Positions 1,082 through 62,155 of a DNA stretch of 64,000 bases are shown one piece after another (position 1 is the stretch's first letter; every line of letters starts with the position of its first letter). The stretch covers positions 5,086,001-5,150,000 of the forward strand of contig CM075995.1 of the NCBI GenBank assembly GCA_038087875.1, given 5' to 3'. The translations under genes were made by a program, and so were the position numbers. The DNA comes from Malacoraja senta (lineage: Eukaryota). Below the pieces are notes generated by a model. It was given only the letters and a program-made list of their open reading frames with translations, did not search any database and had not been told where the DNA came from.

Positions 1082-1216
1082 CTTCTTGCATATGGAGTGC
1101 ACAGCCTAAAGTTGTAGGACAATTTGTTCTATTTGATCTTATTTGATTGTGCACGCCAGGTTGATTGCATTAGTTGAAACAGGGCGGACCACGTGAAGGT
1201 TGCAATCTCCCACCCC
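1082..1216 (-). mobile_element. Short SINE-like element headed by an HDV-like ribozyme (copy 1)
   Basis: Near-identical to 47584-47708. Flanked by an 11-bp direct repeat with 1 mismatch (TCCCTGGAGTT 1071-1081 / TCCCTTGAGTT 1217-1227). Minus-strand 3' end has a long stem-loop and a CAAGAAG tail. Confidence 0.85.
1163..1216 (-). ncRNA. HDV/CPEB3-like self-cleaving ribozyme with minimal P4 (copy 1)
   Basis: Minus strand: GGGGUGG(P1) GA GAUUGCA(P2) ACC(P3) UUCACGU(L3) GGU(P3') CCGCCCU(P1') G UUUCAA C UAA UGCAAUC(P2'). Nested double-pseudoknot order, G1-U wobble, putative catalytic C at 1173. Confidence 0.8.
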
Positions 1217-2950: not shown

Positions 2951-3077
2951 TCCTCAGGATTGGACTATTTGGTTTTGCGGTGTAGGATATTGAAAAACTG
3001 CAAATGCTCAGTATGCAAGAAGAAAGGGGAGAAAATAGAAAAGTTATTACTTTAAGTCAAAAGCATGTTTGAAACAA

Positions 3078-10454: not shown

Positions 10455-10760
10455 GTCAGGGACGGTGTGGTAGCGCAGCAGTAGAGTTGCTGCCTTATAG
10501 CACCAAAGACCCGGGTTTGATCCTGACTACGGGTGCTGTCTGTACGTTCTCCCCGTGACCTGCGTGGGTTTTCTCCGAGATCTTCGGTTTCCTCCCACAC
10601 TCCAAAGATGTACGGGTTCGTAGGTTGATTGGCTTGGTATAAATGTAAAAATAGTCCCAAGTGTGTGTAGGATAGTGTTAATGTGCAGGGGTCGTTGGTC
10701 GGTGCGGATTCGGTGGGCTGAAGGGCCTTTTTCCGCACTGTACCTCTTAACTAAACTAAA
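10455..10760 (+). mobile_element. tRNA-derived SINE (HE1/V-SINE-like)
   Basis: A/B-box-like head (GGTAGCGCAGCAGTAG; GGGTTTGATCC), central TGCGTGGGTTTTCTCC...GGTTTCCTCCCACACTCCAAAGA core, (CTAAA)n tail. Related copies at 58950-59210 (+), 56985-57245 (-) and 37230-37520 (-). Confidence 0.8.
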
Positions 10761-14273: not shown

Positions 14274-14322
14274 ACGATAGCAGACACCAGGTCACGAAAA
14301 GTTCCATGATAATAAAGAATGG

Positions 14323-14670
14323 ATGTTGAATCAAAAGGTATTCAATGATATAGTCATCAGATTTGGAATGACCGACATCGACTTGAATCATCAGCTATCG
14401 AGATATGTCTCATGGAAACCAGATCCAGGAGCAGTGGCGATTGATGCTTTCTCGCTACATTGGGGTGGTATGTTTTCATATATATTTCCACCTTTCTGCC
14501 TCATAAGCCAATGTTTGCTTAAAATCAGGCAAGATGCTGCTTCAAGGGTATTGGTAGTACCAGATTGGCCTATACAGCCATGGTATCTGTTGATATTAGA
14601 ATTAACAACACAAATGTTGATGAAAGTCCCAAAAAGGAGTAATTTATTGCTGCACCCTGTAACAGGGTAA
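14323..14670 (+). pseudogene. DIRS-associated DNA N6-adenine methyltransferase-like domain
   Basis: YVSWKPDPGAVAIDAF..W...YIFPPFCLI..CLLKI....VLVVPDWPIQPWY, located between RNase H and YR as in DIRS1 elements. Confidence 0.8.
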
Positions 14671-14720
14671 CAACATCCATTATATCATCGTTTGGATTTG
14701 TTGATTTGCAGGTTTTAAGA

Positions 14721-15682
14721 ATGCCTTTTCTGGGACGAGGACTGTCTGAGCATACTGTGGACATGCTTACGGCAGCCGGGAGGAAGAGCACTCAAAAACT
14801 GTACCTTTCCTATATTAAGAAATGGGAAGAGTTCTGTGTACAAAAGAATGTGCAATAAAGTACTGCAGATATTTCAAATGTTTAGAATTTCTGTCAAAAC
14901 TTTATTATGATGAAGGTCTGAGTTGTAGTGCAATTAATTCAGCCAGAAGTGCATTGTCCTCATATTTGGTTCTGGATTCAGAAAGAAACTCAATTGGGTC
15001 ACACCCAATTGTTTCCAGACTAATGAAAGGAATCTTTAATTCCAAACCACCGAAACCTAGGTACGTGACAATCTGGGATGTAAGTGTGGTACTGAAACTA
15101 CTTCGTGATGGTTATCAAGTGTGTCTTTACCTTTGGTCAAGCTCAGTATGAAAGTATTCATGTTTATGGCATGAGTGACAGCACAACGAGTGCAAACACT
15201 TGGAAAATTACAAATAGACAGTATGGAAGTAACTGAAGACAAGGTTACATTCTATATCTATGACCTAATAAAGCAAATTAGGCCAGGTGTGACAGGATTT
15301 AAAATTATGCTGGCAGCATATCCAAATGATCCATGTCTTTGTATAAGACATATTTATTACAATACATTGAGGTCACAAAGAATTTGAGAATACGGAAACT
15401 GGGTTTTTGATCACACACAAGAAACCACACAAGAGAGTTTCAATACAGACTATTTCCAGATGGATAAAATAAGTCTTAACAGCTGCTGGTATTAACATTT
15501 ATGTTTTTACGTCTCACTCGTCTAGGGCAGCAGAAATGTCGGCGGCCAGGGCAAAAGACGGTCCCGTCGACCATATCCTCGCAGCCGCCGGGTGGTCCAA
15601 TGAGTTGATGTTTCAACATTTTTACCATCGGCCTATTGTTAATGCGGGGTTGTTTGCAGAAACTATTTTAAGTTCTGTGTAA
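14721..15682 (+). pseudogene. DIRS tyrosine recombinase (disrupted)
   Basis: N-terminus ...RKSTQKLYLSYIKKW, then SAINSARSALS and TAQRVQTL; C-terminus HSSR...AAAGWSNELMFQHFY carrying the HxxR, W and catalytic Y positions. Confidence 0.88.
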
Positions 15683-15850
15683 ATTCCTCTGGTTTAAAGG
15701 GGATCTGATTCATTTCATTCTTGAAATGAATTACTGCATTTGTGGTACAAATGTTATTATGAATGCATGATTGATTATTCTCGTTCCGAGTCAATCTATG
15801 CAGTGAGAAGCCGGGATTGATCCACGGCATGAAATCACAAAGCTTTAAAA

Positions 15851-15964
15851 TCTTCACGTAGTCACTCACGTGACTCCGAAGTAAAATAGTAAGATTAAAC
15901 GAGAACTTACCTAAGTTTGAAGTTTGATCTTTATTTTATGAGGAGTTACGTAGGTGATTACGTG
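15851..15964 (+). repeat. DIRS internal complementary region (ICR)
   Basis: 15851-15887 is the reverse complement of 11402-11438; 15888-15964 is the reverse complement of 16117-16193. Confidence 0.95.
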
Positions 15965-17373
15965 CCCACCACGACCCTACCCTCTATCATAAAGGTCAGA
16001 TGGAAGTTCTTGTCTTACTCGTTTTAGTATGAGACTATATTACTTCGGTTGTTGTTTTTTGTGATTTCACACCGCTGCTTTGAAGATTGACGCGCAGGCG
16101 CACTGGCGGGGTTCTTCACGTAATCACCTACGTAACTCCTCATAAAATAAAGATCAAACTTCAAACTTAGGTAAGTTCTCGTTTAATCTTACTATTCTTA
16201 CATGTAATTGCATATACAGTAAACATCGGTATTTCAAACAACTTATTCAAACGTGCTGAAAAAACGTTATTTAATCATTGCTGTTCATTTGGTCGTGATA
16301 GGAATTTAGGGTGTCCAAGGTTGTGGTTGGTCTGGGAATATAATGTCTTCCACAGTTAAGTAGCCAGTCAGCATTTAAAAGAATAGAAGATGATATGGAA
16401 TAAGCCTTCTCTTCCACTCCAGCAGTTTCCATCCTAATAATTTTGAAAGTCAAGAGGCTGAACAAATCAGTGAAGGACGTGCTGCCGAGAACAAGAAGGG
16501 ATCCGTTGTGGGGGGTGGGGAGGCAGCTGAGAACAAAGAGGGAACTGGCGTGGGGAAGGGGCAGCTGAGAAAAGAGAGGGTCTGGGGGGGGGGGGGAAGA
16601 AAGAAGGTCTATATGGAATACTTTTGTAACCTGGTCGGCGCCCTTTATACTTGTACTGTACGCAAACATAGAATCTCACTGTACCAAGAACACTTGACAA
16701 TAAAATATTAATCAATCAATCAATTCTTGTTGATGTTTATCACCTACTACTAAATGAATAGTGGGCACATGCTATGTTGCAGACTTTACTCCCATGCATT
16801 AATTCTGCCTAACACTGAAAAGAGGAGAAGCGTGTAGCAGCCATGTAGCCGTTCTCCATCTGAAGAGATATTTTTTTAGGCTGCAAGAAGCAAAGCTGCT
16901 CCGACTTTGTCTCTCAGCAGCCCTACACAACGTCCAAGAAATGTCAGAATTTACTGCACCTGAGCCAACTGCTTCACCAAACGTGGAAAGAATTTGCAGA
17001 ACATTAAAATTTTATTTTGATGCCTTTTTTGATAACATTCCTGATTAATGCAGTGAAAGGGGAATGTATCAACATAAATTTAATAGAAATGCACATTAAT
17101 ATAAATTTGTGGGAAATAATTCAAAATCTCTATTCCTTTAGTGTCAATAATTGTTCCTTAATTTATTTTCTAAAATGCTCTGGCTCTTATTGTAAGGTTA
17201 ACTCTTGTTATGAATTCCTCTATCAGCAAAAAGGTTTTTTCTTCTCTGCCCACTATAAGAACATCTTAAATGCCACAATCAAATCTCTCTTCAATCTTCT
17301 ATATCACAATGAACATAAATCTGTATGTAATGTCTCCTTGGAATCTTTGGAGTTCCGTGAATTATTATTATTT

Positions 17374-17665
17374 TGTGGCGGCAGTCTATACACGGGCCAC
17401 TTATGCTCGAACCCTCGTCAGGAAATACGAGGGCGGGCACGTGACGTCATGGGCTAGAGGGAGTGTCCTGGTACTTAAGGTCATCTCACCTCGAGACCAC
17501 CAGGTGTTCAACCGGTAGCTGAGCCCGAGGGAACAACCTCGCTCAGCTTCAGCAACAACATTAATAATAGTTAGCGCACCAACCTAACGTGTCGACCCTT
17601 GAGTAAACAACTGTTTGAACCGGCCTGACGTCTCCTCTTTATTCACCACGTTTGGTGCTGCTACA
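17374..17665. mobile_element. Solo LTR (292 bp), probably Gypsy-type
   Basis: TG...CA ends with imperfect 10-bp inverted termini (TGTGGCGGCA / TGCTGCTACA) and a 4-bp TSD ATTT (17370-17373 / 17666-17669). GC/CpG-rich island in AT-rich DNA. Confidence 0.65.
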
Positions 17666-18254
17666 ATTTGCTATAATACAGTTGCCATGGTGATTAAGTT
17701 TATTGCCAACACTTACCTCTGAAATTTTTATACTAATTACTTTACACCACAATTTAGCAAGCTGCTCTATTTTGCAAATTTTCTCAGATCTGTATACATG
17801 TCTGGATGCATATTTTTAAAGTTTACCTTTCTCAAAGAAAACACAACGACAGCATCATGTTTCAGAGTATTTCTTAACTCTAGATTGTATCTATCTTATT
17901 TATCTTTTTGCAATTATTGTATGAGGGCATCCTGCTCCCCTTAATGTTTAGTGTTAATGAAATAACATCACAGTCATAATTCCCTTGTGTGGTTTTCCCA
18001 ATGTATTAGGAATCATTGATGATTAGTTGCGACTGCAGCACTGAGAAATGTGTTGGAATGCTTTTCTTGAATAAAAGTGTTTTTATTCTTTAGATTGGAC
18101 AGTCAACTAGAAATTGTAATTAAATTACACCATGAGGAAATCAGCTTTTGGCTGAAAGCAAAGGTAATACAAAATTATTGTTTTAGAAGGAAGGCTGACA
18201 TATCCCACATGTAATTATTAATGCCACAATGCTTACTTTTAAGAATTAATTCTT

Positions 18255-20680
18255 AGTTCTTGGTTCTTGGTTCTTCTTGGTTTCTTGGTCCTCCAAAATA
18301 TTCCAAATGGAATTTAAACTGGAGGTGGTGGAGGGAGGACTTAAGCCAGAAAGGGTTTTTGGGAAGAAAGAGCTACCTTAAATTTAGTTGCATCTGGTTG
18401 GGTAACTATGGTAGGGTGAAGATTATTCCATGCTTTAATTGTGCGGGGGAAGAATGAATTGCTGTACACATCTGTCTTGGTAGCTGGAATCTCAAATTGG
18501 ATTGAATGTCCTCGTCTGCTCCTAATTGGTTTGGGTTTGGTGTAGGTCTTGTAATCTATGTTGAGCTGACCATTTAACATTTTGTAAAAACAGGTCAAAC
18601 GGTGAGCTTCACGTCTGTCTTGGAGAGGGTTCCACCCCAGAGAATTCAGAAGTTTGGTAACACTCGCTTCTCTCTCATAGGTGTTAGTAACAAATCGAGC
18701 TGCCTGTCTTTGGATACGTTCGATGGAAGAAATGTTTTTATTTGTGTATGGGTCCCATGCTGCAACTGCGTAGTCCAAATGAGGTCTAACGAGGGTGAAG
18801 TATAGCTTCTCCTTGACAGAAGTTGAACAATGATGAAAGTTGCGCCTCAGAAAATTTAGGACACCTGTTGCTTTCACCGTTGCATGATGAGTCTGACCAT
18901 TCCAGCGCAGATCATTCTGCAATTTGATGCCAAGATACTTGGTTTGTTTGGATTCTTCAAGGGTGGTACCAAGTATATTGTATGATGTTTTGCCTGGATT
19001 CCTCTTTCTGGTGACACGCATGGTTTCACATTTGGAAGGGTTGAACTGCATGCCCCATTGGTGTGACCACTCAACCATTGTATCGAGGTCCTTTTGGAGA
19101 GCATCTTCATCATCAGCTGACTTAATTGGATGGTACAGCAAACAATCATCAGCGAATAGTCTGGTCGTGCTTGCGACTTTTTCATGGATGTCGTTTATGT
19201 AAAGCAAAAACAGATGTGGGCCAAGTACTGTGCCCTGAGGTGTACCACTCAACACTGGATGCCAATTGGAGCTCTTTCCGTTCACACACACACGCTGAAG
19301 ACGTTTTGTCAGGAAACTGGAAATCCATCGTTTCGTGTTGGAACGAATACCATAGAAGTCAAGCTTCCGAAGCAGTCTCTGGTGTGGGATGACATCAAAT
19401 GCTTTAGAAAAGTCCAGCACTACTAAATCCGTGATGACATTACCATCAAGATGTTTGGCCAGGTCATTTGTCGTCAGGATAAGCTGAGACTCACATGATC
19501 TATGCCTCCTAAATGCATGTTGGTTGTCAGCAAGAATATTATGTTTGCTCACGTGTCGCATCAGATTACTATCAATTACATGCTCCAGTAATTTGCAGCA
19601 AGTACTTGTTAATGAAACAGGACGATAATTCGCTGGGTTGGTGGTTGAACCTTTCTTAAAGAGAGGAGTGATGTTAGCCTTCCTCCAATCCAGCGGAACT
19701 TCACCTGAGTCAAGCGATTGTTGGAAAATGAACTGCAAAACTGGAGCCAGTTCTTCGGCTGTGATCTTGAGGGCTTGATTCTGTATCTGATCTGGTCCAA
19801 TTGCTTTTGTGGTATTGATGTTGAGCAATAACTTCTTGACATCTTCAACCTCAATTTTAATAGCAGGCATATCAGCATACGGGCTGGGCGGTAGAACTGG
19901 AAATGATGAAGGCTCCATATCCTCCCGGGTGAAAACGTGCTGGAATTGGTTTGCAAGAGCTTCTGCTTTCGCCTGGTCCTCAGTGATCAGACAGTTGTTC
20001 ACTTTAAGCATCTGGACACCTGTGTTGTCTGTCCGTCTGGATTTCACATATCTCCAAAAAGCCTTGGGTTGCTCTCCCCCAAGAATAGAAGAAACATGTT
20101 GTCTATGAGCACTCCTAATAGCACGATCGACTTGCTTTTGCATTCTAGTAAAATTGTCCCAGTCCAGTTTTGTACCCCTTTTTTTGGTACGGATATAAGA
20201 CTTCTCTTTCTTACTGCAGAGACGTTTCAGTTTTGCCGAAAACCAAGGAGGACGCATACGGCCCTTAATGAGTTTTTGAGGAACATGATTTGTAACAATA
20301 TTATTTAAAGAGTTTCTCAGCCACACCCAGTTGTCATTTACGGATCTTTTATCTGGTTGCAGGTTGAAGAAATCTTTTCCCAGTTTTTTTGCTAAGACTT
20401 TAAATTCCTCGCTGTTCACTTTTCTCCAGAGGGAAATTTTACGCGGTGGCTTTGAAGGAACTTTAAGCTTTGTGTGCAGTTTTGCTTGGATAATATAATG
20501 ATCGCTAATTCCAGCACACGATGAAACTTCCGAAATTAAATCTGGGTGAGAAGTGAACAATAAATCTAGAGTATTTTCGGTGCCACTTGTCTCATCACGT
20601 CTGGTAGGGAAAGTGACTTTTTGGGACAGGTGATTTTCCAGAGTAAGGTCAGCTAGGGCTTCCTGGATTGTTTTCAATGT
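18255..20680 (-). mobile_element. CR1-group LINE of a second lineage, 5'-truncated, with an open ORF2 remnant
   Basis: 784-aa ORF at 18341-20695: APE end (TLDLLFT, GISDH), RT (NYRPVSLTS, LDFSKAFD, GTPQGTVLGP, LFADD), SFFPRTIKAWNNL. Short 3' UTR hairpin and (CCAAGAA)n-type tail. Confidence 0.9.
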
Positions 20681-23600
20681 AATAATCAATACCACAAATC
20701 AAATGTGAAACTCATTGAATCGTGAAGACTTAGCTCTGAGATCAACTGTAGCTTACCACCTAATATAGCCATTTCATCGCAGATGAGGAATTGAACATGG
20801 AACTATTTTGATCTATAATTCTTAGTACCGCACTAGATTGAGCATTTCCATTTAAATATTGTCAACCCGATAATAAAGCAGCTCATTAAAATGTTACCTA
20901 GGTGTACCCTCCTTAAAATTCTAATATTACCATTAGTAAGCAGAAGTAGACTTGAGAAAAAGGAAATGAGATGGCAGAAAAAAACCATTGAAGGAGGAAG
21001 GAAATGGTTGGAGGAGGGAAGGGGACTAAAAAGCCAAAAAGAGAAGAGGTTGGGACAAGGCCACTGAAGGCCAGAAAGGAGAAACCATTGAAGAATGTAA
21101 AAGAGGGGAGATTAGTGGAAGAAGAAAAAGGAGGAAAGAGAGTATATGAGGGAAGGAACAACAACTTGCAATGTGTAATGACTTTAATGTAGAAAAAATG
21201 TTTCAAGATTATTTGTGGTGGACAATAAACCAATGAACAAGACTAAAAGTGTTAGCAATGTTTGTGTTTTAAAGAATTATCAAGGAAGAAGAGTGAGGTG
21301 AGAAAGCAAAGGTATTTAGGCTGGGAATTTCAAAGAATCTGTCCCCACAGCACTGTACCAATAGTGGGGCAAAGGAGCTTAAAATACAGATAAGGCCAGA
21401 GTGAAAGGAACACAATAAGGTGAGAATAGTGGAGCAAGATGAGGTCACAGGCCTCATGTGGTGAAAAAAAAGTGAGCTTAACACATAAACTGAGTTCTTG
21501 AAGTTTTGCAGCCTATATGAATAAGATCAACAAGGACTAGTTAGAGACATTTGGATATGGTTATGTTTATGGAGAGTGGAAGATAGCAGATTGGCCAGGA
21601 TATAATTAGAGTAAGATCGAGTCCAGAGGTGAGGAAGGTACGAATGAAAGATTCGGGTGCAGTTTGGATAAGGCTGAGCTGGAAGTGAGTGATATTAAAG
21701 AGGGAAGTAGCTTTGTAATATAAAGTAGCTTTGTAATATAAAGGATATGAAGTCAGAAACAAGCAGGGGACCGAACAGGACTCCTTGCATGCAGTGTTTT
21801 TTTTTGTTCAGCTGTTCAGGCAGTAGGTGAAGGCAAGAAATTAGGAGATTGAAGGAAGGAAAATGAATGTAATCCATTGTTGATCACTATGGACTCCTCA
21901 CGGTGTGATTTCTCATTTCCTACCTGGAATCATGTCTTTGAAAAATAACTTTCAGCTTGAGTGAGAAATGTTGGCATCCCAAACTAAATAATTTCTTACT
22001 TAAGATTGGAGAAAATTGAATGCCAATAATTCTGAAGGTAGAGGATTGCAGTGACAGTCTTCTTTCATTTTTCAGGGAAATTGGGCTGCCAACAGTCACA
22101 ACACACAAGGTACACAAAAACTTGAAATTAAAATTAAATTAAAAGTGAGGGGGAAAAAAAACAAGCGACTGTTGGCTGGCTGCCATGTGCACAGCGCCTT
22201 AACCAGAACGAACAAACGCAGGCTTATCCCGTGGGCAGAGGATTCTAAAGCTAGAGTGGCCCCCCTCCCCCACATGGGGTCCCCCTTTGTTCTCCCACCA
22301 TCCCTCACGGCGGTCCCCCCCACACTGGGCCCTCCATTGTTCTTCACTGCGGTCCCCCCACGCCAGGTCCCCATTGTTCTTCACGGTGGTCCCCCCACCG
22401 CGGATCCCTATTGTCTTCCCCATCTCACCTCACGCTCATCGACACTGATCGCGGGTTGATCATGAGGCCCCACCGTTGTCGAGGCCCCCGTGGCCGCCGA
22501 GGGTCACACCCCTTACGTCAAGGCTCATGCTGCCACCGAGGCTCCCATCGCCACTGTCGCTGAGGCTCCTTTATCCCAGACAGGTCTCTCTGCCCGGCTT
22601 CTCTGCAGTCCTCTGGGAGGCTTGTGGGGCCAGTTGGGCCTACCAGGGCGCAGTTGTTCGGCAGGAGATCAGGCCCGCGCGGGTCCCCGGGACACTCCCG
22701 CCACGTGCGTGGCTCCCCAGAATTTATTATTTTTATATTTTAGAAAGATTTAACTCATGAATGACCTTTATTGGACCAATGAGAATTCAGCAACAAACAG
22801 AATGCATCCTACAGAGCAGACAAAGGATGATGTTGGATTTTTTGGACAGACAAATTTGTATTCATCATAATCCTGCTCTTTTGGCAGAGGTGAAGCATTT
22901 GTAAGGTCGGGACTATTCCCCACATCATTCTTCGATTTGTCACACAGTGGAGAATATGCCCACTGAAGAAGGGTCTTGACCCGAAACATCACCCATTCCT
23001 TCTCTCCAGAAATGTTGAGTTCCTTCCTACACTGTACCTTTTGATAGGCACAGTACACATTGTAACCCTGGGAAGAACTCTTCAGCCACAGGGAGGAGAG
23101 GTTTGAGGAATATCGTAACAATAATATTCCCCAGACGGACACTTGTCTTCTTTCTTGGCAATGGTCATGATTACTGCAACTTGCTCAAGTATGTGAAATG
23201 CCATTAGGAGGTAGCTGAGAAGTAGGAGATTATTGACAGAGACATTGAATCTGTTTCATCAAATTACAAAGGACATGATTACATGATCCTGAGGTTGTAG
23301 TTTGTTTAGGAGACTTGATACAAGCTTGTTCAGTGAAATCCAGGAGATAATATAGCAAACGAAGTTCCTGTTTCAGGGAAGCTCACTATTGAAATGCAAG
23401 AACTTGAAATAAGAACAGATAATGCTGGGCATACTCAAGTGGTTTGGTAGCATCTGTGGAGAGAGTATCCACAGACAGCTTTTAGACTAATGATCAAGTT
23501 GTCTACCTTTGGAACATTAATAAACAAGGACAGTGTATCCAAGGGCATGCTTCGCTGCATCCATCTTTAGAATTTAAGTCAAATAAAATGGGTGTAGCAA

Positions 23601-25282: not shown

Positions 25283-28200
25283 CTAGACTAAGTGGGACCT
25301 GTTGGGTCCCAGTCACACGAGAGGCCTGGTCCCCCAACGCAACCCATTTCCCAACGCAATATTCCACCACTCACCCGTTCCCCCAATGCAACCCGTTCCC
25401 CCAATGCAATATTCCACCACTCACCCATAGCCCCTAACTGTGCAGGCGCGGCTGACAGGTTCCCGTTGTGACGCCCCTGATCCCCCCTCCTCCCCTCACC
25501 CCTCCACCCCGCCCCTGGCCCTCCCCCCCCACCCAAGCACTCACTCCATCCCCCCTCAACCCCTCCCCATCCACTCTTAGTGGCTCTCCGGCGGCGCAGC
25601 CATTCCCTCCCATTGGGTTCCCATTGTGATGTAGAACATGCAGATATTACTGCGCAGGCGCAGCTGACGGGCAGGGCAAGTGGAAAAGGGATTTATTAAA
25701 CCTTAAAATGTGAAAAAATAACAACAATTTAAACGTTACAGATGAGATTTATTCTGTCCATTCTTTCTTGTTGCATCTCTTGTTGAGTTCTGCACACGGG
25801 GAGGGGCGGGGGCTGTCGGGGCTGGTGGGGGGAAGCGCCTGCAGCCGGGGGTGGGGCACGGCTTTAGGCGGGGTGTGTCGGGGGCTGGTGGGTGAGGGGG
25901 GAGCGTCCTGCAGCCGTGGGAGGGGGAAGGCTTCAGGAGGGGGCTGTCGGGGGCCGGGGGGGGAGCGTCCTACAGCCGGGGGAGGGGGGCGGCTTCAGAC
26001 GGGGGGGGGTTCAGGGCCGGTGGGGGGGGGGGGTGTCTGTGGGTAAGTGGGGGGGGGGTGTGGGTGGGTGGGTTGTGGGCGGGGGGGTTGTGGGCGGGGG
26101 GGTGTGCGTGGGCAGAGGGGAGTGGGTGTGTGGGCAGGGTGGTGTGTGGGCAGTGGGTGTGTGGGGAGACATTGTGGGCGGGGTGCGTGGGCAGAGGAGA
26201 GTGGGTGTGTGGGTGGGGTTGTGTGGTTGGGGGGGTGTGGGCAGGGGGTGGGGAGTGGAGGTGTGGGGAGGGGGGTGTGGGGGGAGGGGGGGGTGTGGGG
26301 GGAGGGGGGTTGTGGGGGGAGGGGGGTTGTGGGTCAGGGGGGCGGTGTGGATCAGGGGGGGGTGTGTGGGTCAGGGGGGGTGTGGGTCAGGGGGGGGTGT
26401 GTGGGTCAGGGGGGGTGTGGGTCAGGGGGGGTCAGGGGGGGTGTGGGTCAGGGGGGGTGTGGTTCAGGGGGGGTGTGGGTCAGGGGGGTGTGTGGGTCAG
26501 GGGGATGTGTGGGTCAGGGGGATGTGTGGGTCAGGGGGGTGTGTGGGTCAGGGGTGTGTGTGGGTCAGGGGGTGTGTGGGTCAGGGGGTGTGTGGGTCAG
26601 GGGGTGTGTGGGTCAGGGGGTGTATGGGTCAGGGGGTGTGGGTCAGGGGGTGTGGGTCAGGGGGTGTGTGGGTCAGGGGGTGTGTGGGTCAGGGGGTGTG
26701 TGGGTCAGGGGGTGTATGGGTCAGGGGGTGTGTGGGTCAGGGGGTGTGTGGGTCAGGGGGGGGTGTGTGGGTCAGGGGGGGGTGTGTGGGTCAGGGGGGG
26801 GTGTGTGGGTCAGGGGGGGGGTGTGGGTCAGGGGGGGGTGTGGGTCAGGGGGGGTGTGGGTCAGGGGGGGGTGTGGGTCAGGGGGGGGTGTGGGTCAGGG
26901 GGGGTGTGGGTCAGGGGGGGTGTGGGTCAGGGGGGGTGTGGGTCAGGGGGGGTGTGGGTCAGGGGGGGTGTGGGTCGGGGGGTGTGGGTCGGGGGGGTGG
27001 GTCAGGGGGGGGGTGGGTCAGGGGGGGGGTGGGACAGGGGGGGTGTGGGACAGGGGGTGGGTGGGGCAGGGGGGGGTGTGGGGCAGGGGGGGGTGTGGGT
27101 CAGGGGGGGTGTGGGTCAGGGGGGGTGTGGGTCAGGGGGGGTGTGGGTCAGGGGGGGTGTGGGTCAGGGGGGGTGTGGGTCAGGGGGGGTGTGGGTCAGG
27201 GGGGGTGTGGGTCAGGGGGGGTGTGGGTCAGGGGGGGTGTGGGTCAGGGGGGGTGTGGGTCAGGGGGGGTGTGGGTCAGGGGGGGTGTGGGTCAGGGGGG
27301 GTGTGGGTCAGGGGGGGTGTGGGTCAGGGGGGGTGTGGGTCAGGGGGGGTGTGGGTCAGGGGGGGTGTGGGTCGGGGGGGGTGGGTCGGGGGGGGTGGGT
27401 CGGGGGGGGTGGGTCGGGGGGGGTGGGTCAGGGGTGGGGTGGGTCAGGGGGGTGTGTGGGTCAGGGGGGTGTGTGGGTCAGGGGGGTGTGTGGGTCAGGG
27501 GGGTGTGTGGGTCAGGGGGTGTGTGGGTCAGGGGGGTGTGTGGGTCAGGGGGGTGTGTGGGTCAGGGGGGTGTGTGGGTCAGGGGGGTGTGTGGGTCAGG
27601 GGGGTGTGTGGGTCAGGGGGGGTGTGGGTCAGGGGGGGTGTGGGTCAGGGGGGTGTGTGGGTCAGGGGGGTGTGTGGGTCAGGGGGGTGTGTGGGTCAGG
27701 GGGGTGTGTGGGTCAGGGGGGTGTGTGGGTCAGGGGGGTGTGTGGGTCAGGGGGTTGTGTGTGGGTCAGGGGGGTCAGCGAAGAGGACCAGAGGGGAAGG
27801 GGCTGGAGCTGACAGTGCGATGGGAACTCACAGCGGGCGCTGGTCGCTGGACGTTCTCCTCCGCCGGGGTCAGATTTTCCATTTTCCGTTTGGCGACATC
27901 TTCAGCGGTGGGCCGTGCTGGGCTTCCGGTCCCTCCGAAAATTGTGTCCGGTTGGAAACCTCCGCCAGCCATCCAGAGCCTCCCTCAGCTCCAGTAAAGA
28001 TGCGAAGGCGCAGGAGGGGATGGACCGTCGCACGGAGTGACAGGAGAAAAGACCAATCCACGCGGCGCTGAACGGCAGGAGAGGAGATCGATCTGCGCAG
28101 CGCGGTTTGAAAGATTTTTTTAATCTCGCTAACTTTTACATTAGACCACCGATCTGAACGAAACTTGGTGCAATCACAGCACAGAACAGTGAGTAAGCTG

Positions 28201-46383: not shown

Positions 46384-46698
46384 CAAAAATATCAACCAAG
46401 CCTTCCCCATCCAAAAAACGTTGTTCAGATAAAATGGAAACACCAATACAAGAGATAGAAAACAAAGTTGCACGATCTCCACCTGTGATCGATTCTGTTG
46501 CACGATCTCCACCTGCGATCAATTGTGTTGAACAATCTCCATCTTTGATTACTTCTGTTGCACAACCTTCAACTCAACCCAGACAATTAATTAGGGAACA
46601 GGAAGATCAGAAGGTGATCCAAGATCCAACCCCACCTGCATCCCTGAAGAATCGGATGCACAGGCTGGCACAACAGTTACGCCAAAGGGACGCTGAAG
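46384..46698 (+). CDS. ANLN: Anillin coding exon 3
   Basis: tttag|CA acceptor; KISTKPSPSKKRCSD...SLKNRMHRLAQQ; G|GTATTG donor; phase 1 to 1. Confidence 0.93.
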
Positions 46699-47583
46699 GT
46701 ATTGTGTAATTGTGTTGGAATGTGATGATCAATTTCATTGTTTTACATTTCTTGCTTTCATTTTTTTAAATAATGCTTTATTCAAATATTTAACATGATA
46801 ACACTGGAATTAATTATCCTTTCCCATCTTAATGTCACGATAATTACTTGTATTTGTTTAACACCTTTGGTAAGGTAAATCATCTCAAAAGGCCTCGCTG
46901 GGGCATTAAAAAAATGAGGGCAAGGGCTAGGGATAAAAGAACTGACAAAACTAAGACAAAGTGTTGGGTTTTAAGGAGTGCCTTAAATGAGGATAAACAG
47001 GTGGAAATATTTAAGGATGCACTTCAGAACTTGGGTCTTGAAGATATCGTTGCCCATCATGGAGGAAAGAAAGTCTAGGAAAGAACTGCAGATGCTGGTT
47101 TAAATCTGAAGGTAGACACAAAGTGCTGGAGTAACTCAGCGGGACAGGCAGCATCTCTGGAGAGAAGGAATGGGTAACGTTTGTGCAGAATGGAGGAAAG
47201 AGACCTTGAGTTGGGCAATAGTCATGTATTTAAGGTTCAGGGTGGCCAACAGCTGAATATAAGAGCTGAACCCTCTTTAGTCAGAGGGTGGTGAAACTCT
47301 GGAATTATTTGCCATAGAAGGCTATAGAGGCAAAATCAGTGGATATTTTTAAAGAAGAGATAGATTTTTGATTAGTACATGTGTCAGAGGTTATGGGGAG
47401 AAGGCAGGAGAATAAGGTTAGGAGGGAGAGATAGATCAGCCATATTTGAATGTGTATGAAAGAACGGCAGATGCTGGTTTAAATTGAAGGTAGACACAAT
47501 GCTGGAGTAACTCAGCAGGACAGGCAGCATCTTGGGAGTGAAGGAATTGGTTGACTTTCGGGTCGAGATCCTTTTTCTCTCCA

Positions 47584-47708
47584 CTTCTTGCGTATGGCGT
47601 GCACAGCCTAAAGTTGTAGGACAACTTGTTCTATTTGATTGTGCACGCCGGGTTGATTGCATTCGTCGAAACAGGGCGGACCATGTGAAGGTTGCAATCT
47701 TCCACCCC
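47584..47708 (-). mobile_element. Short SINE-like element headed by an HDV-like ribozyme (copy 2)
   Basis: TSD TTCTCTCCA (47575-47583 / 47710-47718; 10 bp with one mismatch if 47574/47709 are included). Same sequence as 1082-1216 apart from a 10-bp internal duplication there. Confidence 0.85.
47655..47708 (-). ncRNA. HDV/CPEB3-like self-cleaving ribozyme with minimal P4 (copy 2)
   Basis: GGGGUGG AA GAUUGCA ACC UUCACAU GGU CCGCCCU G U-UUCG-A C GAA UGCAAUC; putative catalytic C at 47665. Confidence 0.8.
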
Positions 47709-48769
47709 CTTCTCTCCAGTGATGTTGCCTGTCCTGCTGTTACTCCAGCATTTTGTGTCTAGCCATGATTGAATGGTGGAGTAGACTTGATGGGCCAAAT
47801 GGCCCAATTCTACTCCTATCACTTATGACTGTATAAATCTAAAAAAATTGTAATTCCTTTGAAATTTTATCTTATTTCTTTAAAACATTCTTATTCAAAG
47901 TTAGTGACCTAACATTGGAACGGAACAAGAATCACCAAATTTTCTCGTGATCATATTTCTAGGAAAGAACATGCTGTTATTGATTTGTCCAGGTCATGTG
48001 TTAATGGAATCAAGAGCATGCATTCTTTAAGTAGCCTTGACATACATGAATGGCCCAATGAGCTTTTCGTGCAAATGCTGAACTTCTGAAGTAGAACAGA
48101 AACATGCGCTTCAGGCCACCCTGTCCATTACGACCAAGTTGGTATTCTGAGCTTGTCTCATTTACCTGCACCCAGCCCCCAGCCAATCCAACCCCTCCCC
48201 ACAATCCAAGCCCAGACAAAATAGTGGCAAATTGCTTCTGCAATTTCCAATCCAATGGTCTCCTCGTGGCTGGGTAATCAGAATTATACACGCACTCCAA
48301 GGGTCGTTGTTGCGTTTTTTTAAATATGGGCAGTTTGTATACAACCAGAATTAATAAAAATTAAAGCTTTTTATTGCATGTTAGGTGAGAGATGGAGTAA
48401 ACATCTCATGATAATATATTTTAGAATTAATGGTTTTGTAGTCACCAGGACACTAACAAAATGGAGGCTTGCTACTTTGAAAATTTGTAAATGAATCTGA
48501 TGCAATCTCACAATTTAATCAAGAATGTGAGGTGGAATTTAAAAAAAAATAAAGAATAGTTACTGAAGCCCCCAACACTGGAAATATCTCAACATGTGCT
48601 TTGACATGCAATTTCATGACTTTTACACTCAATAAAATTGCGACTCGTTCTTCTAAACTCCAACGAATTAGGTCTAACTTATTTTTAGCCATCCATGTCA
48701 GGACAATCCTGTCTTCCCAGGAATTAATCTCTTGGTTGTTTCCAATGCCAGTATATCTTAAATGTGTGA

Positions 48770-51700
48770 TGCTATTGTGGGATATGACCAGTTGGGGGAG
48801 AGCAGTCGTGGTCTGGAACGCGGTGTCTGGCCTGTCTTTGGGGCACAGTGCGGAAGGGAAAAGTCAGAGCCATAGTGATGGGAGACTCGTTAGAGGGACA
48901 GACGAGGAGATTCTGTGGCAGCGAATGAGACTGCAGGATGTGTTGCCGCCCAGGGTCCAGGATATCTCGGAGCAGCTGCAGAACATTGAGGGAGGGCGAG
49001 TAACTGGAATTTGCTCTTTGGCACAAGTGACATGGGTAGGAATAGGGATATGGTCCTGCAGAGTCCATATAGGGAGTTAGGCAGAAGAATATAAAGAACC
49101 CCGAGGGTAGTAATCTCTTGTTTTCTCCCAGTGACACGTACTTGTGAGGTTAGGAACAGAAAGATGGGGCAGGGGGACGAGTAGCTCAGGAGTTGGTGCA
49201 AGCGATGGGGATTTTGATTTTTTTTTAACCTTTGGGATCTCTTCTGTGCAGACGTGTTCTGTACAAGAGGGATGGGTTGCACCTGAACTGCCGCCCCACC
49301 GGACATCGCCTCTACCTCAGTCCTTCCTCCGGACCCAACCCCCATCCTTGCCATGTGTTCACCATCCCCCCTGACCTCCCCCTCTCTGATACCGAATGGT
49401 CTGTCCTCAGCAGAGGCCTCAGCTTTGTTCCCCTCCATCCCCACCTCAATGAGTTCCGGCCCGCCACGATGTGGAGCTCTTCTTCCGTCGCCTCCGCCTC
49501 AAAGTGTTCTTCCATGGGAAGGAGTCCTCGCCCCCCAGTGAGATGACCCCCTTCTCCCATCTCCAACGGACCCCCTCCTCTTGGACTCCCCCACATGGCC
49601 ATCTACCGGCTTTAGACCTTTTTATTTTAATCTACCAGCGGGACATCAATCGCCTCAACTTCTGCACTCCCCTGTCTCACTCTAACCTCTTCCCCACCCC
49701 CCCCCCCCCCCCGAACGTACAGCCCTCCACTCACTCTGCAACAACCCAGATTGGGTGATCAAACCTGCCGACAAGGGAGGTGCCGTGGTAGTCTGGCGCG
49801 TTGATCTCTGTAAGGCTGAGGCCACGCGCCAACTCTCAGAAACCTACTTATCCTTGTTCCATGACCCCACAGACGAGCACCAGGCCACTATCTCTACACC
49901 ATCACTGACCTCATCAACTCCGGCACCCTGCCCTCCCATGCCTCCAACCTCATCGTTCCCCAGCCCCGCATGGCCCGATTTTACCTTCTCCCCAAAATCC
50001 ACGAACCTGACTGTCCTGGCAGACCCATTGTTTCTGCATGTTCGTGTCCATCCAAACTTATTTCCACATATTTCGACTCCATCCTATCTCCCTCCCCCCC
50101 CCCCCCCCCCCCACATCTCCCAATTCCTCTGTCTACGCCGCATCTGCACAGGTTGAGGTGTTCCACACCAGGGCATCGGAGATGTCCTCATTCTTCAGGG
50201 AACGGGGGTTCCCCTCTTCTACTATAGATGAGGCTCTCACCAGGGTCTCTTCTATACCCCGTGACTCTGATCTCACTCCCCATCCCCCCCACTCTCAACA
50301 AGGGCTGACTCCCCCTTGTCCTCACCTTCCACCCTACCAGCCGTTACATACAACAAATAATCCTCCGACATTTTCGCCACCTCTAACGTGATCCCACCAC
50401 TTGCCATATCTTCCCATCTCCTCCTCTGTCTGCTTTCCACAGAGACCGCTCCCTCCGGAACTCTGTGGTCAATTCGTCCCTTCCCACCCGAACAACCCCC
50501 TCTCCGGGCACTTTCCCTTGCAACTGCAAGAAATGCTACACTTGTCGCTTTACCTCCACCCTTGACTCCATTCAAGGACCCAAGCAGTCTTTCCAGGTGC
50601 TGCAGAGGTTCACCTGCACCTCCTCCAACCTCATCAATTGCATCCGCTGCTCTCGATGTCAGCTGCTCTACCTCGGTGAGACCAACACCGAACACCTCCG
50701 CTCGGTTCGCAATAACCAACCTGATCTCCCGGTGGCTCAGCACTTCAACTCCCCCTCCCATTCCGAATCCAATCTTTCTGTCCTGGGCCTCCTCCATGGT
50801 CAGAGTGAGGACCACCGTAAATTGGAGGAGCAGCACCTCATATTTCACTTGGGCAGTTTGCACCCCATCGGTATGAACATTGACCTCTAATTTCAGGTAG
50901 TCCCTACTTTCTCCTCCCCCTCTCAGCTCTCCCTCAGCCCACTGGCTCCACCTCTTCCTTTCTTCTTGTCACCACCCCACCCTCACATCAGTCTGAAGAA
51001 GGGATTCGACCCGAAACGTTGCCCATTTCCTTCGCTCCATAGATGATGACTCACCCGCTGAGTTTCTCCAGCATTTTTGTCTACCTTCAATTTTCCAGCA
51101 TATGCATTCCTTTTTAAACACTCAATATCCTTACAAGGAGGTTTGCAACTGCTACTTGGGTGGGCTTAAACTTAGAGGTGCAGGAGGGTGGGAACCAGAG
51201 TAGTAGATCAGAAGATGGAAGGAGTGATGGGAAGGCCGAGATTGGGATCAGTAAAGGCAGGGAGAGGTGAAGGTATATGGTTAAGCTGATGGGTTGAAGT
51301 GTGTTTATTTCAATGCAAGGAATTTTGTGGAGAAAGCAGATGAACTGGATCGGTGCTTGGCATTATGAAGTTGTGGCCATTTGCGGAACTAATTACAAGA
51401 GGAACATGACCGGGGTCTCAATGTTTCAGATGTGATCGAGGAGAAGGCAAAAGAGGTAGAGGAGTTGTGCTACTAATCAGGGAGGCTGGCACCGGCACTC
51501 TGAGAGAACACTCTGTGGGTGGAACTTAAAAATAAGAAAGGTGCAAGCACTCTAATGGAATTGTACAATAGGCTTTACAATGGCAAGTGGGAGATAGAGG
51601 GACAGATATGTATTATTAATTGGAACATGCTCAGTGCCAAAGGCTTAGACAGGCAGAATTTGTTAGGTGTATTCAAGAATTTTCTGAAACAGTATGTGGG

Positions 51701-51970
51701 TGGTCAAACTCAATAAAGGAATATGCTGGACCTTGTGTTGGGAAATGAGCCTGGCCAGTTGACTGGCGTTACAATGCAAGAGCATTTTTGGGGATAATAA
51801 TTGCAACTCCATAACTTGAGATTGTTTTGAATAAGGATAAGGCTGGATCTTGCAGTATATGGTAAAGCAGTTTACAACATTATTAGGCAGGATCTCTGGA
51901 GGGTACATTGGGCTAGTCCGCATCTAACATGTGGATAGGCACACGTGGAAGTTGTTTAAAGGCCAGGTGA
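48770..51970 (+). mobile_element. Degenerate CR1 5' region (ORF1 esterase-like and APE remnants), split by Penelope
   Basis: GD...VRGTD...FC and LYKRDGLHLN lie before 49290; the sequence resumes at ~51122 with CAATATCC...; later LKCVYFNAR- and LDLVLGNEPGQ-like remnants. Confidence 0.6.
49290..51122 (+). mobile_element. Penelope-like element (Neptune-type Cys-rich linker), RT core deleted, 3' terminal region with hammerhead
   Basis: IKPADKGGAVVVW and ARFYLLPKIHEPDCPGRPIVS, a junction at the poly-C run near 50095-50110, then SQFLCLRRIC, PCNCKKCYTC and GIY-YIG NLINCIRCSRCQLLYLGET. CTGAAGA...GAAACGTT at 50993-51020. Confidence 0.9.
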
Positions 51971-54002
51971 TCAATTTGTTAGTAGAACCAGGAAAATGAT
52001 TACCTTACGATACAATAGAACTTTATTTATCCCAGGCTTTGTGCACATTAAGCTAGAAACCGTGCCCCAGTGAATTGCAGAATTGAGTTTGTTGACAGCG
52101 CTTGAAACTAATTGGATGGGGTGGGTGGTTGAGCAGGATTCAGGTGACGGGAAGCTTAATAAATGAAAGAAACAAGAAATCAGTGGCACAGGCATGTGAA
52201 GGAGTGATTGAAAATCAAATGTGACAGAGGTGATAGAACATATAAACAAAAGTGAGCGGCAGAAATTGAAACCAGAAATAGAAATTATAAAATGCCCAAG
52301 CATAAAGCATGCAGGATTTGTAACAAATAGTGATAGATGAGTTTGATTTAATAGGTATTCCATAATTGTTGGGGGATTAAGATTGATGAATCATTATTCC
52401 AGATTATTCAATGTTCCAAAAGAGCAGATAAAGAGGGAAAGGAAATGGGATAGCATTGTTAAATCAAGGAAGATAGCGCAGAAGTGACTGGTAATATACA
52501 TGTGTAGGAAGGAACTGCAGATGCTGGTATAAACAGAAGATAGACACAAAAAGCTGGAGTAACTCAGCGGGTCAGGCTGCATCTGGAGAAAAGGAATAAG
52601 TGACATTTCTGTTCTCGACCTGAAATGTCACCTATTCCTTTTCTCCAGAGATGCTGCCTGACCCGTCGAGTTACTCCAGCTTTCTGTGTCTATCTTCGGT
52701 GATATAGCATAGGTGGTGATTTGTGATGTGGAATTAGTTGGGATGGAAATAAGGAACATCAGGAGGTAAAGGCATGGGTGGTAAGCTCCCAAAGCATTGT
52801 CTTGTATTTGGAACAGAAGTGGTGGAGACGAAGTAATTGAGAGTGAGTGTGTGGCATCTTTGCAAGAATGAAGCAGGATCTTGGAGCAGGTGTTGTCCAG
52901 AGTCAATAGGTTTATAGCTGGTGTTGGTTGGAAGTCTGTCCCTGGTTGTTTCCTGTTTATGAAATTTCAATGTAACTATTCCTTCAGCTTAGTGGCATCA
53001 CTGGTGAATGCCAGAGATCCTTGAGCTTTTGCTAAAATGGAAGTAACACTGGGGAATGGACAAAGAAGTAGATATAGATTAGTATTACAAAGATGAGTAT
53101 TAGTATTACAAAGGCGTTTCCTTAACAAATTGTAACAGACCATATTGGCCACTTGGTGGCTCTGTAACCTGATACCATTTCTATCATCGATCATAATTTC
53201 TCTCATCATTCTCCAGTGGGAGAATTGATTTAAATCTTTACAGAGACCAAATTCGGGCAGCTCCTCTTTGAAGGTGCAAAAAAAAAACTTGCATAGTAAA
53301 ACGGAGACTTGGCAAGGACACTTTAAGGGATAATTCTAAAGGACACAGCATGATAATAAAAGGAACAATAATTGCTTGGGTGGGGAGTAAAGCAAAGGCA
53401 TGCAGTGATAACAGTGAGGATTTTCCCATGATCTGCATGTGTCTGATTGAACTTCTGGCTATCTAATTAAAATATCCCATAGAGCTATTGGTTACAAAAT
53501 TACAGATTTTAGTTATCTTAAACGTGTAGGGACGAAGTGTTTCTAAAATAGAATAGGGTGTGGTTGAAGAGAACGTGCAGGCCGTGGTGTGGCCCTGCAC
53601 CTGCTGTCATTCGTGGTAATAGAGATGAGTTTAGGAAGCTTTTGATCATTATAACTAAGAGCCAACTGCAGTAAACCTGTCTAACCCTGTGGACGTCCTC
53701 TTTGCTTCATGTCAAATTATGCGGTGGATGCAATGAATTGACTTTATTTGTGTTATTCTAGTCAATGCCATTTGAAGAAGGTTTTGTTTTCATTTAAATA
53801 ACGAATGGTTATTTGGAAAGTGGTTGCAGCAAACCAATCTAGGGAGTGCTCCAATGGTTCTAATTTGCAGAATTCAAATTCGGAGTGAGATTTGTATGGA
53901 GAGCAAAAAGGACAAATCCATAGGCAAATGTAAAATGTGAGCTTCTATAATCCCGGTTGGTTTATCATTAATGTGATAATGTAGATTGGTATACGTGATA
54001 TA

Positions 54003-54640
54003 AGCATGCAGGTACAGCAGGCAGTGAAGAAAGCGAATGGCATGTTGGCCTTCATAACAAGAGGAGTTGAGTATAGGAGCAAAGAGGTCCTTCTGCAGTT
54101 GTACAGAGCCCTAGTGAGACCACACCTGGAGTATTGTGTGCGGTTTTGGTCTCCAAATTTGAGGAAGGACATTCTTGCTATTGAAGGAGTGCAGCGTAGG
54201 TTCATGAGGTTAATTCCTGGGATGGAGGGACTGTCATATGCCGAGAGAATGGAGCGGATGGGCTTGTACACTCTGGAATTTAGAAGGATGAGAGGGCAGC
54301 TTATTGAAACATATAAGATTATTAAGGGTTTGGACACGCTAGAGGCAAGAAACAGGTTCCCGATGTTGGCGGAGTCCAGAACCAGGGGCCACTGTTTAAG
54401 AATAAGGGGTAAGCCATTTAGAAAGGAGACGAGGAAACATTTTTTCACACAGAGTTGTGAATCTGGAATTCTCTGCCTCAGAGGGCTGTGGAGGCCAGTT
54501 CTCTGGATACTTTCAAGAGAGAGCTAGATAGAGTCTGGGGATATGGGGAAAGGGCAGGAACGGGGTACTGATTGTGGATGATCAACCATAATCACATGGC
54601 TCGAAGGGTCGAATGACCAAATCCTGCACCTATTGTCTAT
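54003..54640 (+). mobile_element. CR1 LINE 3' fragment
   Basis: ORF 54006-54527 (QVQQAVKKANGMLAFI...RPHLEYCVRFWSP) followed by the CR1 3' UTR. Confidence 0.92.
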
Positions 54641-55148
54641 TCATAGTCTAAGACGCACAGTTTAATTTGGTTTAATGAAATGTTGGCTTGCTGGGTGCAA
54701 TGCAATGGTTAAAGGTAACAGTAATTGCAATGAGAGAATTTTTAGTTCAAAATGGAGCCTCTCCCTCATTTGAAGGCCAAAATAAGAGCTCTCAACGGAC
54801 CTGAGGAAATGATTTTAAATTGTTGTTTCCTGATCTAGAAGTTGTGATCTATCAATTTGATGGGAATGGTTTATGTTAGAAATACTCTTCAGCCTTTTTA
54901 TATTGTTTGAGAGAGTTGTATAAATATACTATCAATATTTTTGAGTATTTTTTCAAGTATAACAGATGCAATGTAAACTGGTGATAATTCAAGGAAGCCA
55001 ACTTTTCATTTATCAACTCAACTTTAACAAATCCTACTATTTAGATGAAATTTATCAGCTGAGGACCAAATATTCAGTAATTGCATGTGCTAAAATAAAG
55101 AATTTAAACCTTGACGCGTCTCTTTTTTCATGATTTTCTTCACAACAG

Positions 55149-60266: not shown

Positions 60267-62155
60267 TAGAAACATAGAAAATAGGTGCAGGAGTAGGCCA
60301 TTCGGCCCTTCGAGCCTGCACCGCCATTCAATATGATCATGGCTGATCATCCAACTCAGTATCCTGTACCTGCCTTCTCTCCATACCCCCTGATCCCTTT
60401 AGCCACAAGGGCCACATCTAACTCCCTCTTAAATATAGCCAATGAACTGGCCTCAACTACATTCTGTGGCAGAGAATTCCACAGATTCACCACTCTCTGT
60501 GTAAAAAATGTTTTTCTCATCTCAGTCCTAAAAGATTTCCCCTTTATCCTTAAACTGTGACCCCTTGTTCTGGACTTCCGCAACATCGGGAACAATCTTC
60601 CTGCATCTAGCCTGTCCAACCCCTTAAGAATTTTGTAAGTTTCTATAAGATCCCCCCTCAATCTTCTAAATTCTAGCGAGTACAAGCCGAGTCTATCCAG
60701 TCTTTCTTCATATGAAAGTCCTGACATCCCAGGAATCAGTCTGGTGAACCTTCTCTGTACTCCCTCTATGGCAAGAATGTCCTTCCTCAGATTAGGAGAC
60801 CAAAACTGTATGCAATACTCCAGGTGTGGTCTCACCAAGACCCTGTACAACTGCAGTAGAACTTCCCTGCTCCTATACTCAAATCCTTTTGCTATGAATG
60901 CTAACATACCATTCGCTTTCCTCACTGCCTGCTGCACCTGCATGCCTACTTTCAATGACTGGTGTACCATGACACCCAGGTCTCGTTGCATCTCCCCTTT
61001 TCCTAATCGGCCACCATTCAGGTAATAGTCTACTTTCCTGTTTTTGCCACCAAAGTGGATAACCTCACATTTATCCACATTATACTGCATCTGCCATGCA
61101 TTTGCCCACTCACCCACCCTATCCAAGTCATCTTGCAGCCTCCTAGCACCCTCCTCACAGCTGATACTGCCCTCCAGCTTCGTGTCATCCGCAAACTTGG
61201 AGATGTTGCATTCAATTCCCTCGTCCAAATCATTGATGTATATTGTAAATAGCTGGGGTCCCAGCACTGGGCCTTGCGGTACTTCACTAGTCACTGCCTG
61301 CCATTCTGAAAAGGACCCGTTTACTCCTACTCTTTGCTTCCTGTCTGCCAGCCAGTTCTCTATCCTCATCAATACTGAACCTCCAATACCGTGTGCTTTA
61401 AGTTTGTATATTAATCTCTTATGTGGGACCTTGTCGAAAGCCTTCTGAAAGTCCAGATATAACACATCCATTGGTTCTCCCTTATCCACTCTACTAGTTA
61501 CATCCTCGAAAAATTCTATAAGATTCGTCAGACATGATTTACCTTTCATAAATCCATGCTGACTTTGTCCAATGATTTCACCATTTTCCAAATGTGCTGC
61601 TATCCCATCTTTAATAACTGACTAGCAGTTTCCCCACTACCGATGTTAGACTAACTGGTCTGTAATTCCCCGTTTTCTCTCACCCTCCCTTTTTAAAAAG
61701 TAGGGTTACATTAGCTACCCTCCAATCCTCAGGAACTACTCCAGAATCTAAAGAGTTTTGAAAAATTATCACTAATGCATCCACTATTTCTGGGGCTACT
61801 TCCTTAAGTACTCTGGGATGGAGCCTACCTGGCCCTGGGGATTTATCGGCCTTTAGTCCATTCAATTTACCTAACACCACTTCCTGGCTAACCTGGATTT
61901 CACTCAGTTCCTCCATCTCATTTGACCCCCGGTCCCCTGCTATTTCTGGCAGATTAATTAAGTCTTCCTTAGTGAAGACAGAACCAAAGTAGTTATTCAA
62001 TTGATCTGCCATGTCCTTGTTCCCCATGATCAATTCACCTGTTTCTGACTGCAAGGGACCTACATTTGTTTTAACTAATCTTTTTCTCTTCACATATCTA
62101 TAAAAACTTTTGCAGTCAGATTTTATGTTCCCTGCCAGTTTTCTTTCATAATCTA
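60267..62155 (-). mobile_element. CR1 LINE, 5'-truncated (RT domain)
   Basis: ORFs 61680-62093 and 60356-61591 (KSPGPG..HPRVLKE, LDFQKAFDKVPH, FADD) separated by a frameshift; (TTTCTATG) tail. Confidence 0.95.

Follow-up and report, generated by a model that had tools for sequence, protein, structure and literature searches.

A short internally deleted LINE-derived retroposon with a predicted HDV-like ribozyme head without P4, likely inactive in this copy, in ANLN intron 3 of the ray Malacoraja senta

The copy in ANLN intron 3 and its sister copy

The window, by which we mean the whole 64,000-nt stretch of Malacoraja senta DNA that was analyzed, contains coding exons of the anillin gene ANLN on the forward strand. 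Searches by tblastn with chondrichthyan anillins, combined with splice sites, placed coding exon 1 at 34695, exon 2 at 42721, exon 3 at 46385-46698 and exon 4 from 55149; the best exon matches were to Pristis (80%) and Mobula (72%). Coding intron 3 hosts a 125-bp element on the reverse strand (Table 1), in agreement with the sequence-only reading, which had placed the copy antisense in this intron. The ANLN pre-mRNA would not be cut by this copy because the copy is antisense. A G-rich tandem repeat of about 2 kb (window 25868-28071; GC 72%, GC skew 0.76) precedes the ANLN start codon by about 7 kb.

The copy is bounded by two 9-bp target-site duplications (Table 1), with one additional base at 47709 between G1, the first base of the head (47708), and the head-side duplication. 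The base preceding G1 is a G. In genomic HDV, G before the cleavage site was the slowest of the four bases (PMC1874588). The 10-nt deletion that defines the 125-bp form is a minor variant, found in 3 of 79 sampled copies. Within the segment that comes from the 5' end of the LINE, 10 nt are complementary to the 3' tail (window 47640-47649 with 47594-47603); the most frequent short form (38/79) pairs perfectly here, and the LINE form with one mismatch. The copy is enclosed by a palindromic repeat of very high abundance, about 200 bp long (window 47448-47583 and 47710-47761), which has more than 10 copies within the window.

Table 1. Positions in the window of the retroposon copy, the parts of its predicted ribozyme, its target-site duplications, its host intron and its sister copy.
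Feature	Position	Strand	Basis
Whole non-autonomous retroposon copy, 125 bp	47584..47708	-	sequence
Predicted HDV-like ribozyme without P4, 54 nt	47655..47708	-	sequence and covariation with L266 and L327
P1 of predicted ribozyme	47708-47702/47679-47673	-	
J1/2 of predicted ribozyme	47701-47700	-	
P2 of predicted ribozyme	47699-47693/47661-47655	-	
P3 of predicted ribozyme	47692-47690/47682-47680	-	
L3 of predicted ribozyme	47689-47683	-	
G37 of predicted ribozyme	47672	-	
6-nt stub in place of P4	47671-47666	-	
J4/2 of predicted ribozyme	47665-47662	-	
G25A within a CpG; corresponds to the G25 responsible for positioning the catalytic Mg2+	47684..47684	-	copy counts; PMC13635239 and PMC4836649
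C44, predicted catalytic cytosine (C75 equivalent), intact	47665..47665	-	position in the fold; C likewise in L242, L266 and L327
Remaining part of the LINE-5'-derived segment; predicted to pair with the 3' tail	47632..47654	-	LINE matches, fold
Last 36 nt, parent LINE 3' end (ORF end, short UTR, AAG tail)	47584..47619	-	36/36 identical to L213
Target-site duplication, tail side, 9 bp TTCTCTCCA	47575..47583	.	sequence
Target-site duplication, head side, 9 bp TTCTCTCCA	47710..47718	.	sequence
ANLN coding intron 3, hosting the copy in antisense	46699..55148	+	tblastn with chondrichthyan anillins, splice sites
Sister copy in the 135-bp form, with both G25 and C44 intact	1082..1216	-	local BLAST

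Local BLAST detected only one other copy in the window, 46.4 kb from the first (E 4e-44). Its target duplication is 11 bp long with one mismatch and differs in sequence from the 9-bp one, as the sequence-only reading of the 47584-47708 element as a second insertion with its own duplication had it. The two copies are 86.7% identical overall. Their 17 pairs in P1, P2 and P3 are the same (17/17), as had also been claimed, and within the 54-nt core they differ only at positions 8, 25 (G25A), 42 and 45, none of which lies in P1, P2 or P3. The further statement that differences fall only in loops and junctions is correct for the core but fails for the 3' part, where four more substitutions and a 10-bp deletion were found. 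By itself, the two-copy comparison says little about selection, because three of the four core differences lie in CpG dinucleotides, position 8 often varies within the family (in 23 of 76 copies) and stems are not spared among 79 copies of the family. No spliced joint was seen over window positions 200-19000, around the sister copy, among the matches listed in four runs against putative-RNA contigs of other organisms. A search there for the MATCAP family, the neighbor expected from human synteny, gave no match, and neither did its controls.

Family members and the parent LINE

The exact 23-nt motif at the 3' end of the element had 3,919 matches in the genome, a lower bound on the number of copies that includes some LINE ends, and the reversed control had none. 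Searches of the same genome with the two window copies gave 1,150 and 1,969 candidates, of which the best 40 each were 95-100% identical. The first 90 motif matches, all within the first 38 Mb of contig C1 and chosen independently of the head, were taken as a sample; removal of four segmental duplicates, two LINE ends and five headless copies left 79 copies. The headless copies, which are 5'-truncated, make up 5 of the 86 non-duplicate loci. A clean anchor was available for 62 copies, and 51 of these had a target duplication (median 11 bp), compared with 0-1 in each of 20 mispaired controls. The variable target duplications, the AAG microsatellite tail, the fixed ends and the 5'-truncated copies identify the element as a non-LTR retroposon, a class inserted by target-primed reverse transcription, and the duplications and the thousands of copies support the earlier proposal of a mobile unit. 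The element has deep contig coverage in four other organisms (A, B, D, and E), so the family is common to relatives. A classical Pol III SINE was rejected as a description, given a head that comes from a LINE 5' end and the lack of an Rfam match to tRNA, 5S or 7SL. The base before G1 in the 62 copies was T in 29, G in 16, A in 13 and C in 4. For HDV cleavage, too, T is the most favorable base; here the base before G1 belongs to the target site.

The parent was recognized from its own copies. In two loci (L111 and L177), an ORF encoding a C-terminal zinc knuckle ends in the 3' motif. A search with this ORF gave 495 candidates, the best 40 of which were scored, and BLAST matched the tail in 28 of the 30 loci fetched. 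Locus L245 is near full length (2.8 kb), has a target duplication and contains, in order, the same ribozyme head, an endonuclease, RT, a C-terminal zinc knuckle and the same tail. LINE copies match positions 1-77 of the element: the 47584-47708 copy is identical to L242 at 67 of 75 positions at the 5' end, with no gaps, and its 3' end is identical to that of L213 (Table 1). The middle of the element, about 22 nt, had no match in three LINE copies. With both ends from an autonomous LINE and no ORF, the element is a bipartite non-autonomous LINE (SIDE).

The proteins closest to the parent LINE are single ORFs of about 1,000 amino acids with APE and RT, and an RNase H family was absent among the homologues listed (120 and 64). 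The parent LINE has the same organization, a single ORF with APE and RT and without RNase H (L245 translation; Pfam on seven pieces and P0001). This architecture and a C-terminal pattern that we take to be Vingi-like suggest that the parent is a Vingi-type LINE; none of the homologues listed bears the name Vingi or Ingi. A single-ORF LINE without RNase H is the architecture given for Vingi (PMC13708176).

The short forms likely arose more than once, since other internally deleted derivatives of the LINE (L144, L160, L241:439-894 and L242:3602-5193) differ in their junctions and in length, at about 135 bp, 450 bp and 1.6 kb. In 7 of the 40 parent-LINE loci (L205, L206, L207/L231, L214, L216, L224, and L246), the ribozyme-bearing 5' end is inverted beside the 3' part, an arrangement that appears to resemble the twin-priming inversions of L1.

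Predicted fold of the head and the G25A change

The head of the element is predicted to fold as an HDV-like double pseudoknot without P4. In head numbering, P1 is formed by positions 1-7/30-36, P2 by 10-16/48-54 and P3 by 17-19/27-29, with J1/2 at 8-9, L3 at 20-26, G37, a 6-nt stub and J4/2 at 44-47; P1.1 consists of one pair. Rfam gave no match at the gathering threshold over the window, the only matches being two chance ones to lncRNAs (E 0.96 and 8.2). The fold was evaluated in 77 metagenome loci that code for relatives of the LINE protein (320,894 bases). A structure descriptor matched twice on the coding strand of these loci (L266 and L327) and not at all on the other strand, and both matches lie no more than 190 nt upstream of the ORF match. 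The fold was seen in 2 of the 27 relative loci with N-terminal coverage; a stricter descriptor matched 1 of the 27 upstream regions and none of the reversed or shuffled controls.

All 17 pairs are kept in both relatives (17/17 each), with six double-sided changes in L327 and nine double-sided and two single-sided changes in L266. The P1.1 pair (C22-G37) is invariant and hence lies outside the covariation support. The head of the parent LINE and that of the short element differ by one compatible change, in P1. The earlier claim of a conserved fold holds, for an HDV-like fold, through covariation in these distant LINE relatives, but not through the two window copies, whose comparison proves little. 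The region of P4 is 24-29 nt long in L266 and L327 and is a stub in both the LINE and the short element. Because P4 is real in both relatives, it was likely lost in the lineage of the ray element.

The catalytic C expected in J4/2 is present in the window copy, in the LINE and in both relatives (Table 1). The letters at U20, U21, C22, A23, G25, U26, G37 and U38 are those named for the CPEB3 ribozyme (PMC4836649). A nested-only folding model, which cannot score pseudoknots, preferred for the 125-nt form a pairing that competes with P1, so that P1 had a probability of 0.03-0.07 vs. 0.94 in a 135-nt copy. The misfolding of the stub as a GU-UUCG-AC hairpin, suggested by the sequence-only reading, is not favored by the model: at +1.7 kcal/mol and a pair probability of 0.05, the UUCG hairpin is predicted to be unstable, and most family members carry this stub as well.

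The U20-G25 wobble in L3 is present in the family majority and is lost in the 47584-47708 copy, which has A at position 25. G at this position was the majority in four runs covering four organisms. The G25A change in an HDV ribozyme of C. briggsae left no visible cleavage in 60 s (PMC13635239). The G-to-A change in L3 had been taken for a harmless loop change and instead hits G25 of the catalytic wobble. Since its L3 carries G25A, the very change that silences a related ribozyme, the copy is by analogy likely dead in either orientation.

Mobilization, alternative readings and related systems

The family shares its ends with the LINE and has an AAG tail, a constant 5' boundary, thousands of dispersed copies and target duplications near 11 bp, and the fold of its head shows covariation in distant relatives. 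We assign a probability of about 0.8 to the reading that the 47584-47708 copy is a short, internally deleted retroposon made from the ends of a Vingi-type LINE, that its predicted minimal HDV-like ribozyme likely serves to free its RNA from a longer host transcript, and that this particular copy is likely inactive through G25A. A source copy would be transcribed by read-through within a host transcript or from an internal promoter, and the ribozyme would cleave just before G1 and generate the fixed 5' end. The LINE protein would then bind the 36-nt tail and insert a new copy by target-primed reverse transcription, with a duplication of about 11 bp. Inserted copies would decay neutrally, and the fold would be kept by selection on source copies. 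We infer cleavage and mobilization in trans from the R2 SIDEs (PMC3414825) and from NARTc/SIDER (PMC4035085), to which the ray element would be analogous.

Counts of single variants bear on the source copies. On the same 30-nt background, the genome contains 1,135 intact sequences, 64 with G25A, 59 with C44U, 79 with C41U, 253 with G42A and 195 with G45A. CpG variants at the catalytic positions G25 and C44 are thus near baseline (64 and 59), whereas those at the tolerated positions 42 and 45 are 3-4 times higher. Decay after insertion should be about equal on both halves of a CpG, and C41/G42 lies in a palindromic context, so the excess at 42 and 45 likely comes from source copies or from copying. 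The pattern gives a hint of selection on source copies, as a contrast over five sites in which the tolerated C41U is not raised and with uneven per-site CpG ratios also found in LINE coding DNA. G42A and G45A occur on several backgrounds. Strand-biased deamination as the origin of their excess is made somewhat less likely by the LINE coding DNA, which over few sites has no general excess of G-to-A at CGA (0/38 and 9/76).

A ribozyme-derived head could instead act as a structural or DNA-level signal, such as an internal promoter or a protein-binding or translation element like Pr77 in L1Tc, that has not cleaved since P4 was lost. The P4 stub in the LINE and the short element, compared with 24-29 nt in the relatives, and the competing fold predicted for the 125-nt form fit such a signal, and Pr77 is both promoter and ribozyme (PMC4035085). 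We nevertheless regard it as unlikely that the head does not cleave, since most of the family retains U20, G25, G37, C44 and every stem, HDV-like ribozymes without P4 are active in vitro (bioRxiv 10.1101/2023.06.13.544163), and copies with a variant G25 or C44 show no excess.

The neutral decay of inserted copies that the cleaving-head reading predicts has a rival in selection on each copy, in which copies keep an active ribozyme, the fold is selected copy by copy and sense intronic copies are purged for cutting the pre-mRNA. The intact fold in both window copies and the antisense orientation of the present copy would agree with this, as would the fully intact core of 29 of the 79 copies, many of which could then cut if transcribed in sense. 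The sequence-only reading had named an even spread of substitutions through the stems and loops of many copies as evidence against itself. Among the 79 copies, with the 5'-truncated parts of five and the local rearrangements in five others masked, non-CpG substitutions numbered 56/2356 in stems (2.4%) and 12/1010 at unpaired positions (1.2%; p = 0.02), an excess in stems that probably stems from composition and noise at the 5' junction. At least one pair is broken or deleted in 46 of the 79 copies. Stems are not spared and pairs are broken or deleted in most copies, so inserted copies look neutral, which argues against selection on them. The copy studied here carries G25A, and its orientation, a sample of one, is the basis of the otherwise reasonable idea of purging. 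A proxy for orientation, the T-A skew of the flanks over 83 loci, was null (+0.006 +/- 0.007), although this proxy is weak and underpowered. An antisense excess is, moreover, expected for many intronic retroposons without ribozymes. Copy-by-copy selection with purging is therefore quite unlikely in our judgment.

The same genome contains two RTE families, of which A ends in AAG repeats and B in TAAG repeats. They were analyzed through PF20049, a domain that we take to be RTE-associated, by scoring the best 150 of 772 candidates and examining 50 fetched stretches. Both families start, as judged by eye and unscored, with an HDV-like fold that has a long P4 (A at L075:1891 and L079:1779; B at L067:1547, L068:440, L071:2236, and L074:1520, in oriented stretches), and family B shares a 21-nt stretch with the element at 86-90%. 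One of the 50 RTE loci carries a separate copy of the short element. Mobilization by an RTE family rather than by the Vingi-type LINE is highly improbable, despite the AAG repeats of family A, the HDV-like heads of both families and the stretch shared with family B, because the ends of both families differ from those of the element, with no 3' match in the 50 loci beyond the AAG microsatellite, whereas the Vingi-type LINE matches at 36/36 positions of the 3' end and 67/75 of the 5' end, which largely refutes RTE ancestry.

The element resembles several described systems. R2 SIDEs of Drosophila (PMC3414825) are longer (the one detailed is 529 bp), rDNA-specific and low-copy, whereas the ray element is 125-135 bp long, dispersed, without P4 and represented by a motif count of at least 3,919. 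NARTc/RIME and the SIDERs of the L1Tc/ingi clade have a 77-nt 5' hallmark with an HDV-like ribozyme that is common to short derivatives (PMC4035085), and the 5' segment shared by the ray element and its LINE is likewise about 77 nt. Their LINE belongs to a sister clade. Its hosts, however, are trypanosomatids, L1Tc has the RNase H that the ray LINE lacks, and those ribozymes were shown to cleave, whereas the ray ribozyme is a prediction from sequence. Bipartite non-autonomous derivatives of Vingi elements such as Vingi-1_EE (PMC5786205) likewise arose by internal deletion from a single-ORF LINE without RNase H. The portions surveyed of the Vingi literature describe no ribozyme in these LINEs, although one may be recorded elsewhere, for instance in Repbase or in patents. 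Minimal HDV-like ribozymes (drz-Mtgn, theta) lack P4 as the ray element does and are reported nearly only from (gut) phages (bioRxiv 10.1101/2023.06.13.544163), whereas the ray ribozyme heads a vertebrate mobile family. The CPEB3 ribozyme has the same letters in L3 and P1.1 but is a single conserved intronic ribozyme with P4 (PMC4836649), unlike the mobile head without P4 found here.

If the predicted ribozyme is real, Vingi would join the LINE clades with a 5' ribozyme; Vingi, native 5' UTR included, is now being used to insert genes (PMC13708176). It would also be a natural HDV-like ribozyme without P4 in a vertebrate. Since the copies number in the thousands and include catalytically dead point variants that could serve as internal controls, they would make it possible to test cleanly whether self-cleavage within introns does harm, which has been left unanswered for CPEB3 and other intronic ribozymes (PMC6765202). 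A bolder version, which we advance only tentatively and with somewhat less than even odds, is that a Vingi-type ray LINE shrank its ribozyme to an active 54-nt core without P4, that the resulting parasite of 125-135 bp is among the smallest self-releasing retroposons, that catalysis is needed for its spread (no amplified G25 or C44 variants genome-wide) and that the more than 1,000 intact copies form a natural experiment on intronic purging. The 47584-47708 copy taken singly is an ordinary and likely inactive member of a moderately interesting family.

Several other mobile elements lie in the window and are named here by the resemblance of their ORFs to what we presume to be CR1-, L1/Tx1-, DIRS-, LINE- and Penelope-like proteins. 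They are a CR1-like pair with 96% identity (3089-4214 and 60267-61395), an L1/Tx1-like frame of 1,089 residues (5297-8566), a decayed DIRS-like element (12437-15151), a LINE frame of 785 residues (18341-20698) and a Penelope-like remnant (49229-50890).
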